From the NCBI RefSeq assembly GCF_004010195.1, contig NW_025214734.1, forward strand, positions 1 through 50,000: 50,000 nucleotides of DNA. The letters are read 5' to 3'. Shown in pieces: positions 6,518-48,555 of this stretch. A program made the translations under genes and the position numbers. The stretch is from Chiloscyllium plagiosum (lineage: Eukaryota). The notes beneath the pieces are model-generated. The model saw only the letters and a list, made by a program, of their open reading frames with translations, did no database searches and was not told where the DNA came from. The number at the start of each line of letters is the position of its first letter. Within the stretch, counting starts at the first letter, position 1.

Positions 6518-6743
6518 TCAAGGATGATATCTTGGAATATAGTGAGCAGATTTATGTTGGGATTGATGAGATTTGTCAGTTTCAACAATGTGCCTGTCAG
6601 TAAGTGGATCCAATAAAATCACTGACTCAGTGAATTCGTATTTTCTAGAAACCTGTGGATTCAATGGTTGAAAAGATTTCTGGGGTCCATTTTGCCTGCA
6701 ATCTGCTGTGATTTCAAAGTCATTTGTGATCTTCTCTTGGCAC
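6518..6743 (-). CDS. SUSD3: SUSD3 terminal coding exon (CQEKITNDFE...HYIPRYHP*)
   Basis: Acceptor ttttattttattgactgcag|G, phase 2 matching the upstream exon; 226 nt to the TGA (part of ORF 6518..6787). Confidence 0.85.
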
Positions 6744-14484: not shown

Positions 14485-14646
14485 CTGGAAAATCTGATAT
14501 TCTCCAAACCATCCACTCCTAATTCTGTTGTTAATGTACTAGCCCAGAGTTTATTGTTGTTATTGTTTCTGCCTTTGTGTCCATGGAAAAAGTCTCTTGA
14601 CCCTTCCATTACATCACATTCAATCTGGTACCAGGTTTGCAATTGT
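14485..14646 (-). CDS. SUSD3: SUSD3 cytoplasmic exon: QLQTWYQIECDVMEGSRDFFHGHKGRNNNNNKLWASTLTTELGVDGLENIRFS(R)
   Basis: Acceptor aatatttttcag|, donor CAG|gtattt, 162 nt, phase 2 to 2, in frame with both neighbours. WYQ and KGRNNNNN segments resemble non-mammalian SUSD3 tails. Confidence 0.92.
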
Positions 14647-16896: not shown

Positions 16897-17067
<171 letters not shown>

Positions 17068-19254
17068 CTACTTAGTTACCTTCCATAAAATTCCAATTTA
17101 TTTTTAAGGTAGAAAACAAAATACAAACCATTAAAGGATGACGCACTTCTATTTCTTTGCTGAGAGTTCTGGAAAATACCTCACAATTTAAAATGGCGAA
17201 CATTAAAGTAAGAATTTTGCAAGATGAATGGAAGGCAATTGGGGAAGAACTCAATAAATAAATAATTTCCTTGTACCATATATATGTATAAAGATGAGAG
17301 ACACTAACAAATTGTAATAAAGCAATTGTGTGAATGCTTGTGGTTGAAAGTCCAGTTCATAGCAGATAACAATTTCAGAAGTGAAACACAGCTCAGATAA
17401 AAACATGCCATGAAGACAAACAGGATATGGGTCTGACTGAAATAACATAAGGAAGCACATCAGCTCACAATGACCAATGATTATACTAACTTCTGCTATC
17501 GGTCTCTAAGGAAACAGAGCAGGATAGTGCAATTCAGAGTATTTTACCATTGGAAATTTGCATTTTCCACTTTTAAAATGTTGTCCAATTTCTCTCCATA
17601 TGCTTGAGGTAAGTATTGTATTTTTAGCATTAGTACAATTGAATTCTGTTCCAGTTATTGCTCAAGTCTGATATTTTGATCTTTTAATCGGCTTTTTTCA
17701 TAAGATTTATATTAATCTTTGAAAATGCCTGTCTATCAATTAGCATAATTTTGGCATCCAATGTAATTTTGCTGTTCTCCAAATAACATGCTCAGTCATG
17801 TACAGGTGAACATGTAGATCAGACCTATAGACTGGAAAGACTTAAACGATGTCCAAAAGTGGTCCAGATGAAGAATTTACAATTGAACCCCTTCAAAATA
17901 ATGTTTGAAACTGCATGTATCTGTCAGCACCATCTTTATTAAACACATCATGAGCAAGAATAATGGAAAGTGCAACTTTTGCAATCAGATTTTTCCTTTC
18001 AAAAAATAAGGATCTTTAAACTAGCTCCATGTTTTGTTATCTTCTGAAGTCTGCACCTGTTGATTCTGAGGCAGTTTTAACAGACGATCTTAAAGAAGAG
18101 GCTTGATAACCGAAGGCAGAATCTCACAGCATAGGAGCAGGCTATGCAGAGGTAGACATGGAGATGGATGTTGTTAGCTCCCATGTGGATTATGCCAACA
18201 CTGGACAGCATGTTGATCATTAAGACACCATATATAACACCAGCAAGGAAGTATGACCCACCACTAGTTAAACAAAAAACATTGTGATGTAATAAACTAC
18301 AGAACCCAGTTCTACATTTGGATCTTGCTACTCAGTGATAACTAAATTAAAGATTATAGGGTTAAGGCAGGAAAGTGGTTTTGAGGTACAAGTCCATCAA
18401 TGATCTTATCGAATTTCAGATCAGGCTTGGGCAGCTGCTTAGCTATCTCTTGTTCCTATTTATGCTCTTACATGAAGTGAAGAGTTATTGAACGACTCAA
18501 GATACTATAAGGATGGTCTGTCTGCTGCTCTCAGAAAGCCCAGCTCCACACATTTAAGAACATATTTATGTACATGCATGAGAGGTGCCAATGGCTTTCC
18601 AAGAGGATTGTGCCAGGCACACTTCAGAAATACCATTTAAAAAACGTGATGAAATAGCATCAGCCTCAATAAAATTACAAGAACTGACTTTATATTGAGG
18701 GCTTGTGAGAATACTATCAGAGTCAAATTGGCATTTGTCATCATAGGATTTAATATATTTGGGAGCAGTAAACATTTTTAATAAGACAAAATAAGATTTT
18801 CATTGGAACTTCTGTTCAGCAAATTACACCATTTTTTCATCCACAATTCTCAGGGTTCAGGTGAATTTATTACACGAAGGAAGTCACTGAACTGAACATC
18901 ATGAGATGAACAAACAAACGTTAATTTAAAATGTACAAGAGTACATCAGAAAATCATCTCTGTAGCCACGCAGGGCAGATAGTAAAGAGTCACACTAGAT
19001 TTGAACCACTGACTGTTTTTCTCTCTCCACAGATCAACCAGACCTGCTCAGATGCCCCAGCACTTTCTGCTGTTATTTCAGATTTCCAGGACCCACAGAA
19101 TGTGACTTTTAATGCAGTTAACACGACGGTGTTAATAACACAAAAGGTTAATCATCAGCACAATATATTTTCTGATGTAATAATGGCATCTATTAAACGT
19201 AGCTTCTGGCCAAAACTCTACACTGTGAATCCTAAGACAGATGTTATGGTGATA

Positions 19255-20468
19255 TGAAAAGTCCTATAACAAAGGAGGTGGTACGGGAACTAACAAGAGA
19301 GAAATATTTACTTGACCTTTTCCTCACCAATAGATCTTTCACTTAAGTAACTGTCCATAGCAATGATAGGAGTGACCACCACACAGTTCTTGCAGGGACC
19401 AAGTTCCATTATCATACTGAGGAAATCCTCCATTGTACTGTGTGGCATTGTTATGATGCTAAATGGGATAAATTTTAAACAGTTCTGCACCTCAAAATTG
19501 GGCACCCATGAGGCATTGGTGGCCATCAGCAGAATTGTACTCAACAACAAATTGTAATTTCATGGCTCGACACATCTCCCACTCTACCATTATCAATAAG
19601 CTAAGTAATCAACTCTTGTTCAATGGTGCTGAACTGGGGAAGACACAACCAGGTCATGCCAGAAGCAACATGCAATGAATAAAGATAAGTGATCCCATAA
19701 CCAACAGATCAGATACAATCTGTGCAGTCCTGCTAAATCCATCATGAATGGTGGTGGATGATTAAACAACTCACAAATGTTCAGATCCTCAATCTTAGGG
19801 GAGCCCAGCACATCAGTGTCCAATGATCAAGCTGAGACATTTGCAATAATCTTTATTGAGAAGTACCAAGTGAATGCTTCATCTTGACCTCTCCAAAATG
19901 TCCCTCACATTGTAGATGCCAGTCCTCATCCAATTCAATTCATTCCACATAATATCAAGAAATGGCTGGTGGCACCAAAGACTGCAAAGGCTTTGGAATC
20001 TGTGAACATTCCAGCAGTACTGAATAGTGCTGAAGATGTGATCTGGAATTAGCTGTGTCCCAAGCCAAACTGTTCCATTACAGATACAACATCAGCATAC
20101 ACCCAACAATATGGAAAATTGTCCATCTTTGTCCTGTCCACTAAAAGCAGATTAAATCCAGTCCTTATAATTATGTCCCAGCAAGCTACTCTTGATCATC
20201 AAGCAAGTGTCAGACAGTGTCATCAACAAGTCTATCTAGTGGCACTTAGCAATAATCTACATTCTTCCGGGTTCTTCCAGGACAACTCAGCTCACAATCT
20301 CATTACAACCTTGTTCCAAACATAGCCAAAAGAGCTCAACCCAAGAAGTGAAGTGAAAATGAGTGCCCTTGACATCAATGTAGCATTTAATAACATGTCA
20401 TCAATGAGTCTTAGCAAAACTGGAGTCATGGGAATAAGGGAGAACATGCTCTGTCAGTTGCAGACTTA
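19255..20468 (+). mobile_element. CR1-group LINE internal fragment (endonuclease C-terminus to RT)
   Basis: TREKYLLDLFLTN- and RSDHHTVL-like endonuclease remnants; ALDINVAF RT-motif remnant near 20365. Confidence 0.75.
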
Positions 20469-20478
20469 TTAACTTTAC

Positions 20479-20635
20479 TTCCATGATTCTTCACTGCAGT
20501 CTGCACTGTCTGTGTAATAGTTCCATCGTCATCAATTGGTATTTGGAGGAACACAGAAATTTAATTGGTGTCACTGCACTGGTTCATTTCCCTGCTTATA
20601 CACAAAAGCTGACGAAATAGCAGCAGAGTATTGGC
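20479..20635 (-). pseudogene. SUSD3: Decayed remnant of the SUSD3 sushi (CCP) exon 2
   Basis: AAG|GC CAA TAC (G-Q-Y where G-Q-C is expected). With two 1-nt gaps it reads GN(G)TSAVTPIKFLCSSKYQL(x)DDGTIT, versus human [27 protein letters not shown] (from memory). 157 nt long, in-frame TGA, CxW segment missing. Position and strand are as expected. Confidence 0.6.
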
Positions 20636-22811
20636 CTTGTGGTCACAAGAGATATGCATAAACTAAGTATCTCTCCCAAATTACTTGAAACTGAAATACT
20701 GTTAACGTAGCTTAGAAAAATCTATGAAATCAGAGGTTATTCCAAAAGCCATTCACCAAAATGACTAGGGCTGTATCAACAATACATTACACTCCCAGAG
20801 ATTCCAATGGTCCTCCCCAAACAGAATAACCAGAATCATCACCTTACCCATTGTTCTCTCAACACCTTACCCCATGGAGACACTTCTGATCTGTACTGGC
20901 AATAGTGGGCAAATATTCTCATTAGTTTCCATGATCTTTCAGGGTAAAGTCTAAAAATTAATTTTTCAAGCTTTATGAATTATGTCACTTCAGTAACTTC
21001 TATAGCTTTGTTTTTCTAACAGGCTTTCAGGTTCTTGATTAATTTCACCCTTTGACCATAGTCTTTACACATTTCCTTTTTCCTCTATCAAAATTACTTC
21101 ATTAATTTATCATTTTTAACTATGGAATAGCATCAAACTCAAAACATTAACTGTTATGTTCTCTAACAGGCCCTCCTACCATTTACAGTAAAATTTCCAA
21201 GTTCCAACAAATGCTGTTTTAGTTAACACAAGTGAAATATGATCTACTAGCATTGAAAAGATTAATATTGGCTGTGAAAATCTGTTAAACTGCAATGCCT
21301 TTATTAATATATGCAACTGAGGCATGACTTGGAGATTTCTTGCAGTGTCTTGATTAACAATTATCCCTCAAAAGAGCTTAAAAAAGCAGATAATCAGTAA
21401 TTTATTTTAGATTGATCCTTGGAGCACTGATGTACAGAAATAAGTTGCAACGTTTCTTACAGGAATGACTGCACTGAAAGGTTTTAAAAGGGTTCATGTA
21501 GAACATTGTGGTAATGGAACTCACCATAATTTTGCAATTTCCTTTTATTCTCCATCGACAGTCTGCTAATAAAAGCACTTTACATTGTGAAAGGTAAATG
21601 CCACATTTAGAATTCAGTATTTTTCTCACCATTTTCTGTTCTAGCATATGCCTCTATTGCACCATATTTCAAATGGTTAAGTTGGTCTCAAAGCTGTTTT
21701 CTAACCAGATGCTGGGAAGCTCAAGTTATAACTCCTTCTTGATCATGACTGTGTGAAAGATTTTTCATCTGTTGCCCATTTCTTCTTGATCGCCCACCAC
21801 AATTTTGAATTCATTCAACAGTACAGGGAGATAGAAACACAGAAATGCATACCTCATTTTACTACTAAACTTAAAAGAGAATCCTTTTGTTCACCTTTTC
21901 ATTTCTTTTCCTTGCTATGCCTTCAACATACTTTAACAAGTAAGCTTCAATATGCAATATACATTTCCATAATGTCTAACAACATTACTGGGCATCAGCC
22001 CAGCAGGGACTAAGATCTAACAGAATGAAGTACATATAAAAAGCATCACATTGCAGATATTCAAGATCTGAAATGAAAATGCTAGAAATAGCAATGTCAG
22101 GCAGGATTTATGGGTAAAGAAATAGAGTTAATGTTTCGAGTCTTTTTTTACATCAGAATTAGATTATATGAGATAAGCAATGATTTTTCTGTTCATTTGT
22201 GCCTTCCCTGGTGAAATTGTTTCATTCCTGTACAACATTCCATAGCCCAGGTACAGAAAACTTAAAATAACAAAACAGAATAACATATTGAATTTGTCTT
22301 TGCACTGGGCTAATTGGATTGAAACAGTCAAGGTAACCTCATGCTAACTTCAGGAAGACCGTGTCAGCAGGCTAAAGAAAGCTAGTGGTAATCATCATAA
22401 GAAACACTGATGTTGGAAAGGTAACAAATCCATCAAAATGATAGGTAAGTCTCGAGGAACTGGGCTTGTAACACATACAAGGCAAGCCTCATTTAGATAG
22501 AAATCTGATTGATCTCATAAATCTACTTGTAGACCTTCTATGGTCTGTGAACCTTTGCTTAAAAACTGGCCACATAAGAACGAAAAAAATCTGGAGATCC
22601 AAAATCAATACCTCAAACATGTAAATGTATTAAACTGACCTTGGAGTAAAGTCACACGTAATTAAGATATTTTTGCAAATGATTATGTTCAATTAAATAA
22701 AAGACTAAATAATTAAGACTTAATTCAAATGAAATGAAACAATGTAATCCAACTAATTAATACTGCAACTTGTTTAATAGATCAAGTTTGATTATTCATA
22801 AAGATCGAAAG

Positions 22812-29657: not shown

Positions 29658-29742
29658 CTTTATGATTCTGGACGCTGTTCGCATCTTCTGAGAAAACCCC
29701 TATCACTGAGTTATTAAAGGACGATTCAGTAATGGTTTGCAT
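29658..29742 (-). CDS. SUSD3: SUSD3 coding exon 1 (MQTITESSFNNSVIGVFSEDANSVQNHK + G, phase 1)
   Basis: ATG at 29742, 85 nt open, ends AAAG|GTGAGG (strong donor, phase 1). Lies in the only CpG-enriched part of the window. Length and the N-x-x-G| ending resemble vertebrate SUSD3 first exons as I recall them. Confidence 0.8.
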
Positions 29743-45672: not shown

Positions 45673-46299
45673 GCTTCCCTCCTATTTTGCCCAGAATCTA
45701 ACAATGGCCATTTTAATTGCAGGGCTAACTCAGGTGGCAAATGCATTCAAAAGGAAGAATAGGTATTTAAGAATTGCATGAAGATAAGGGAGCAACTACA
45801 AAAGAAACGATAGTGATTTTGGTGACCGATTCTATCCCCTTACCTGAAATATAAGAAAAGCTCCTTCAGCATTCTCAAAACTTGTTACCTCTTCAAAATT
45901 AGTTTGTTTGGCCATTGAAAAACAATGGAAACCATGCTTCAGTGTGTCATTGACATTCTGATAATATAAAGTGAGAAACTGTGATGAAAAGAAATTATGA
46001 ATGTCAAAGATGCATAGGTGGTATCACGTGCAGTACCAGCTTCTTGCACAATAATCACAATTTTAAAAATCACAGCCGGAAAGGAATGCAACATTTCATA
46101 AAATTATTTTCCTTAAGTCGAGCATTAGCTGAACTGTCCGATTTTGCACTACAAAAGTGGACAGAGTGCTTGTTGTACCAGCCAAATGTTTGGACAGCCT
46201 GCTCCAGATATTAAAACACCCTGCCGTTTAGTTTCTGAATCTAGTGGCTAAACATTGAACTTATGCAGTTATCTACACTTGGAGCAATTTAAACATAAT

Positions 46300-48032: not shown

Positions 48033-48555
48033 TTGTTGCAGCAAAGCTTCAATAAATCTTTGATGCAACAATATAACCAATTCTAAGATCCAATGGAAAT
48101 TCCCTGAACATTATTCATACTGTCAATGCACCAATGCATTAAATTTCTAATTATGTCAACTGCACACTTGAACATGACTGGTCAATTGTAATTGTTTTTA
48201 GCTGTACAGTATAGGTTCATGACAATGAGACAATCATTCATTGATCTTTTGCTCTGCATCAATCACAAAAGGTTGTTGGGAAACACAATGAATGTTGTTA
48301 CAAAAGTGTAGATTACTGAGCAATAAAATTATACTGCAAGACCCAATCAGTGAAAACAGATGTATGGCCACAATAGCTGTCTGCTCAGCATTTGTTAGGT
48401 TGCCTTGATTTAAACTATAACTAATGGAGGAGATTCAAGGAGAACTAAACATCATTAACAGAGAAAAAAAACAGAGAGTCATTTGTCTAACTGAAGCTTG
48501 TTTTGAAATTGGATTTTATGATGGATCATTGGGCCCCTTTTGTGTACCATGTATA

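Follow-up and report, generated by a model that had tools for sequence, protein, structure and literature searches.

A decayed sushi exon in intron 1 of the bamboo shark SUSD3 gene, probably dropped once in the ancestor of sharks and rays

Background

A functional sushi domain (CCP, Pfam PF00084) carries four cysteines and a conserved tryptophan in one open reading frame. SUSD3 is a cell-surface sushi protein which, in the portion of PMC11968365 that deals with it, is described as linked to oestrogen, studied mainly in breast cancer and poorly understood. Exon loss as a process is familiar: a passage of 10.1101/009282, citing Alekseyenko 2007, describes loss by mutational disabling or by deletion, and the cassette exons treated in a part of PMC6695735 form the background to it.

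The closest described system is the SUSD3 of other vertebrates, for example that of the chimaera Callorhinchus. The bamboo shark gene has the same N-terminus, transmembrane (TM) exon, cytoplasmic poly-Asn motif and exon phases, whereas the 63-residue sushi domain (PF00084) is represented in it only by a broken intronic remnant. The same architecture is found in the skipped models Gopherus XP_050815170.1 X3, Chelonoidis XP_074929466.1 X3 and Bufo XP_040263406.1 X2, of about 200-204 amino acids, with 36-37 residues and no cysteine before the TM motif. In bony vertebrates, however, the skipped form is one numbered isoform among others, whereas in the bamboo shark it is the only possible product. 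As in known cases of exon loss and pseudoexon remnants, a symmetric exon is gone from a working gene and has left a decayed intronic trace; unlike them, the loss removed the only recognised domain of the gene, apparently throughout the subclass, and its trace can still be aligned although the loss is probably very old.

Among the top-ranked papers of our literature search there was none on SUSD3 in cartilaginous fish; supplementary gene-loss tables of shark genomes could mention the loss. The apparent disappearance of the SUSD3 sushi domain from elasmobranchs seems to be unreported.

The SUSD3 gene of the window

The minus strand of the window (the whole 50,000-nt stretch of Chiloscyllium plagiosum DNA that was analysed) carries the SUSD3 orthologue. 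The TM exon was located by a motif scan and the four SUSD3 exons were placed by tblastn with the best database relative as query (Table 1). Splicing these four exons gives a product of 206 amino acids with no difference from the annotated C. plagiosum protein XP_043542492.1 and with no cysteine before the TM motif. Intron 1 measures 12,612 nt, and exon 1 and the TM exon join in frame across it. As the missing sushi exon is of phase 1-1, skipping it keeps the reading frame.

Table 1. Live exons of SUSD3 and features of the intron 1 remnant (positions in the window)
Feature	Position	Strand	Remarks
SUSD3 coding exon 1	29658..29742	-	85 nt, ends in phase 1, GT donor
Significant core of the decayed SUSD3 sushi exon	20513..20637	-	profile columns 3-44 of 62; 38.5 bits
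Candidate old acceptor AG	20636..20637	-	ties with an ungapped reading, whose expected acceptor at 20647-20646 is lost
In-frame stop TAA, profile column 16	20596..20598	-	four codons before the TGA
In-frame stop TGA, profile column 20	20584..20586	-	Gly at this column is invariant in 34/34 intact SUSD3 exons
1-nt frameshift near column 38, before DDGTIT	20531..20532	-	no gap in the X6 contig 20331-20554
3' tail	20473..20512	-	CxW absent; candidate donors 20479, 20473 and others; all donor paths negative
SUSD3 transmembrane exon	16898..17045	-	148 nt, starts in phase 1; contig of spliced shape in run X19
SUSD3 cytoplasmic exon	14485..14646	-	162 nt
SUSD3 last coding exon	6518..6743	-	runs to the stop

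The TM/juxtamembrane exon is most like SUSD3: among its 112 matches the named ones are either SUSD3 or elasmobranch proteins called 'uncharacterized', and it is 79-88% identical to the tetrapod SUSD3 matches. The relatives from Rhincodon, Amblyraja and Mobula birostris are called SUSD3 in their source annotation. The order of the exons also fits SUSD3, with an N-terminal exon, the phase 1-1 sushi remnant, the 148-nt TM exon and the tail exons. All three TM-exon differences listed for a sequencing run of a related organism (X17) are synonymous, as would suit a gene that is still constrained. The neighbours to be expected of SUSD3 under conserved synteny are FGD3, CARD19 and NINJ1; no neighbouring gene was recognised within the 50 kb, where candidate neighbour exons gave nothing usable.

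Homology of the remnant to the SUSD3 sushi exon

The initial annotation had proposed that a molecular fossil of the sushi exon lies in intron 1 of SUSD3, and the letters that it quoted are indeed present on the minus strand at 20635-20479, flanked by AAG and GTAAAG. The remnant lies on the gene strand, about 3.5 kb upstream of the TM exon, and is single-copy within the window. Sushi-exon segments were cut from 37 SUSD3 proteins, all of which entered the hmmsearch profile; three mis-cut segments were then dropped, leaving 34 in all later profile models. These include a codon-level, frameshift-aware model that allows for neutral decay and for indels of any length.

With plain hmmsearch over six frames the stretch 20613-20524 ranked first (i-E 0.0018, 12.7 bits), the runner-up reaching 1.9 bits. 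The frameshift model gave 38.5 bits at 20637-20513, the next-best place on both strands of the 50 kb scoring 22.0, and this frameshift-aware alignment with a shuffled control, which had been suggested along with the original proposal, upholds it: none of 300 dinucleotide shuffles of intron 1 reached the score (mean 17.8, maximum 25.1; Gumbel p ~2e-7), and the position and strand are the orthologous ones. No column-shuffled profile out of 150 attained the score of the remnant, and as further controls the reversed profile gave 20.5 and the opposite strand 18.8. A profile without Callorhinchus still reached 36.1 bits and Callorhinchus alone 27.5 bits (0/120 shuffles in each case). The proposal had called for a comparison with an intact chondrichthyan exon 2; this could be made in part, the holocephalan Callorhinchus being the only one with such an exon among the proteins found.

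Single SUSD3 exons scored a median of 27.8 against the remnant (n=34), and 900 of 1094 non-SUSD3 sushi domains, taken from 64 other proteins, a median of 12.2 and a maximum of 23.3; none of the 900 reached the SUSD3 median and 10 reached the SUSD3 minimum. By these alignment scores the remnant is of the SUSD3 type and not a generic sushi. The signal is uneven along the exon, since the TSAV...KYQL core (columns 21-37) alone accounts for 26.5 bits and columns 45-62 for none.

At the level of DNA the resemblance is fainter. As an intact comparator we used L001:949-1143, a sushi exon in a metagenome contig from a bony-fish-like SUSD3, which is flanked by AG and GT, is of phase 1-1 and measures 195 nt rather than 189. 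This was the one locus obtained from 150 pattern matches in the metagenome search for relatives. Within the 12.6-kb intron its DNA aligns best at 20665-20469, a weak result that 3 of 300 shuffles equalled or exceeded (p ~0.01). Plain tblastn with single tetrapod SUSD3 proteins gave no significant match at the remnant (E 0.65-3.4), the exact 22-nt core pattern had no match in the metagenome contigs, and no Rfam match was found in intron 1.

Lesions and exon ends

The reading of a decayed exon was right, and the accompanying list of lesions and exon ends was in part wrong. A DGTIT remnant after the loss of one nucleotide is borne out, the DDGTIT piece adding a net 3.5 bits, and no match to the CxW segment was found in the remnant, as had been described. 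The 1-nt gap placed at 'G-A' is not favoured. With 5' and donor paths scored at d=0.3, the path originally drawn, which requires a 9-nt and a 1-nt gap, attains only 4.3-5.0 bits. If the acceptor is kept and followed by a single 10-nt deletion the score rises to 9.9, and a frame with neither gap nor acceptor reaches 8.5. In both of the better paths the 'G-A' codon becomes an in-frame stop (TGA, 20586), and both include a further stop (TAA, 20598) that had been overlooked. The acceptor AG|GC with the first Cys changed to Tyr is plausible, although the 9.9 bits of its path tie with the 8.5 of the ungapped one. As for the 3' end, a donor at 20479 is not supported, since every donor from 20512 to 20441 scores negative and the one originally chosen is outside the top five. 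The profile matches nothing after 20513; the DNA alignment of L001 ends near 20469.

Set against the pattern of a functional sushi domain, the remnant fails: only the second cysteine (Cys31) is kept, Cys2 is changed or absent, and Cys45 and Trp54 are unmatched. If the remnant were spliced in with any of the four candidate boundaries, a stop would be met by codon 45-50. We also observed that the end of exon 1 (29659-29667) and the remnant end as first drawn (20481-20488, minus strand) share an 8-nt word, likely by coincidence.

Independent sequencing runs

The remnant DNA was viewed in this window and in one run of the same species from another study (X6). A contig of X6 over 20331-20554 shows one other letter and no gaps, and a second one over 20550-20800 two other letters, one of them at 20673 and so outside the remnant, again with no gaps. 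As these contigs are gap-free and differ in three letters only, the frameshift and at least one of the stops are real and not assembly errors, in agreement with the original view that the lesions are not sequencing errors.

The depth of X6 contigs is 205 over the TM exon, 9-11 over the remnant and 6.8-11.8 over other unique pieces of the intron; the records of X6 and of X19, a run from another organism, do not name them as RNA, and contig depth says little about expression. X19 yielded a 659-nt contig of depth 94 which matches 16898-17047 exactly, its two extra matched letters fitting the tail of exon 1, and has a depth of 0 over 20552-20800. About 2% of a raw single-cell run (X21) was read, with roughly one read falling on the TM exon and none on the remnant. 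No exon junction reads were seen in the runs examined (X6, X19, X17 and X21, four of 24 listed). The depth of X6, the X19 contig and the annotated protein indicate indirectly that the remnant is excluded from the mature mRNA.

In X17, the third and related organism, a contig over 19938-20800 differs in 19 letters and has 33 extra ones, and the other long contig of this run has a similar density of gaps (60 in 2.2 kb). Should the 33 extra letters lie within the remnant, some of its decay would be recent. As a separate observation, the 3' end of the remnant is short by roughly 15-34 nt, in the region which this X17 contig covers with its 33 extra letters. High-copy repeats lie just downstream of the remnant (18944-19211, 19614-20149 and 20284-20463), with contig depths in the thousands.

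The sushi domain in cartilaginous fish and other vertebrates

The elasmobranch SUSD3 models of all 20 species have 23-36 residues and no cysteine before the TM motif, a pattern of predicted protein models, from which an exon that is seldom used could be missing. We take these species to represent 10 orders, with both shark superorders and four batoid orders; the set holds no Squaliformes or Squatiniformes protein. The three isoforms of Mobula hypostoma all lack the sushi domain. By contrast Callorhinchus milii XP_007901563.1 has 99 residues and four cysteines before the TM motif, with an intact sushi of exactly 63 residues. At E<=0.1 the Pfam Sushi model (PF00084) matched none of 15 elasmobranch proteins, against 5e-8 for Callorhinchus, and it was also matched in paddlefish, lungfish, bowfin, caecilian and turtle (the last just under the cut-off). 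As all the elasmobranch models are without the sushi and the chimaera keeps it, the exon was likely lost once, before the split of sharks and rays.

Two aimed searches for a sushi-bearing elasmobranch SUSD3 found none. The one made with the Callorhinchus sushi gave only Callorhinchus (3/4 candidates), and the other, with HMMER, gave 63 new TM-bearing matches, of which 61 were nearer to bony-vertebrate references and two were low-score ties with a teleost-type sushi. Outside the elasmobranchs a skipped shape was seen in 6 of 222 SUSD3-like proteins, three of them named as numbered isoforms; the other 216, some of which are fragments, did not meet the filter for the skipped form. In Hirundo, SUSD3 models of 204 and 267 amino acids occur in one cluster.

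An N-glycosylation sequon is present in 18 of the 20 elasmobranch species, and a CxxxC motif with a basic cluster after the membrane span in all 20. The product would be a single-pass membrane protein with an outer stub of about 40 residues, working through its conserved membrane and cytoplasmic parts, and by analogy we presume that it may resemble palmitoylated membrane adaptors. One Mobula hypostoma isoform and a Scyliorhinus torazame model are also without the first cytoplasmic exon, which suggests a second skippable exon.

Age of the decay

The decay of the remnant was estimated at 0.2 substitutions per site on 29 shared codons and at 0.25-0.35 on a longer path. In calibration, the Callorhinchus exon, which is intact, already reads 0.1 against a profile built without it, and in simulation a true decay of 0.1 reads as 0.25. 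Because of this bias the true decay could be about 0.1 (~90-170 My), which is younger than the shark-ray split. The whole range of 0.1-0.35, obtained from this one remnant, is compatible with neutral drift.

In the part of PMC13100897 that gives it, the dS between whale and zebra shark is 0.061-0.111 over about 50 My, from which we calculate 0.6-1.1 substitutions per billion years per site. At such rates a decay of 0.2-0.35 corresponds to ~180-580 My, or to 90-580 My with 0.1 included. A dated split given in PMC7677710 puts the holocephalan divergence at 382 Ma, and a remark in PMC13100897 puts the shark-ray ancestor at over 300 My. The estimated age of the decay would be compatible with a loss between these two nodes.

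Origin of the remnant and alternative explanations

We consider it likely that the remnant is a broken SUSD3 sushi exon which was dropped once, in the ancestor of sharks and rays, by the fixation of in-frame skipping, and which then decayed without function. A skipped splice form may already have been present in the jawed-vertebrate ancestor, as suggested by the tortoise, toad and bird models that skip the same exon. In the elasmobranch stem, lesions in the splice sites or in the exon would then have turned skipping into the only option, and the slow substitution rates of sharks would have kept the exon recognisable. A real fossil which died later, or several times, is an unlikely alternative, according to which the exon survives intact, though seldom used, in some lineages and the skipped form dominates elasmobranch RNA, hence the omission of the exon from annotation everywhere. 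The possible decay of only 0.1, the occurrence of skipped models where the exon is retained, as in Hirundo, and the extra letters of the X17 contig speak for such a later death, as does the fact that the elasmobranch case is built on protein models; against it stand the agreement of 20 out of 20 species, the Mobula hypostoma isoforms included, the scarcity of the skipped form outside elasmobranchs and the outcome of the two aimed searches.

It is very unlikely that selection preserved the sequence, dead as coding DNA, for a regulatory role (as an enhancer or splicing element). This would account for the 5' two-thirds being recognisable and the 3' third not, and it would suit both the uneven conservation and a decay estimate that is rather low for a loss as old as the stem; a local alignment, however, by its nature singles out whatever is best preserved, neutral drift at the rates of sharks is consistent with the decay, and intron 1 is without an Rfam match. 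The broader idea that sharks and rays have relied for at least 300 My on a sushi-stripped SUSD3 as a short-stub adaptor, with the dead exon selected as a non-coding element across the subclass, is distinctly improbable. That the remnant is a chance resemblance, an error of assembly or part of another gene's sushi is by now largely refuted and hardly credible. The DNA-level test, the 10 unrelated domains reaching the lowest SUSD3 score and the tblastn values could be cited in its favour; the four nulls (0/300, 0/120, 0/120 and 0/150), the right intron, strand and order, the specificity for SUSD3 and the gap-free independent contigs all oppose it.

The reading of a single loss followed by decay without function would make the absence of the SUSD3 sushi a candidate shared derived character of elasmobranchs, and its main value lies in this clade-wide loss of a domain. 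The loss would also account for shark and ray SUSD3 genes being mostly annotated as 'uncharacterized'. In shark SUSD3 nature has in effect carried out a domain deletion on a surface protein that is poorly understood: as the membrane and cytoplasmic parts are conserved without the sushi, a sushi-independent function is predicted, and the skipped forms of bony vertebrates are expected to have a role as well. Should the loss be as old as the stem, the remnant would be an unusually old dead exon that can still be read, and would provide the slowly evolving genomes of sharks with a clean marker for a neutral clock.

Other observations in the window

On the minus strand, an open 104-nt stretch flanked by AG and GT at 48317-48420, with a hydrophobic end and no Pfam or Atlas match, is probably due to chance. 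Another exon-like open stretch (45844-45978, minus strand), without a Pfam match, has a strong AG|GTAAGG donor. Positions 1655-2167 are an assembly gap of 513 N.
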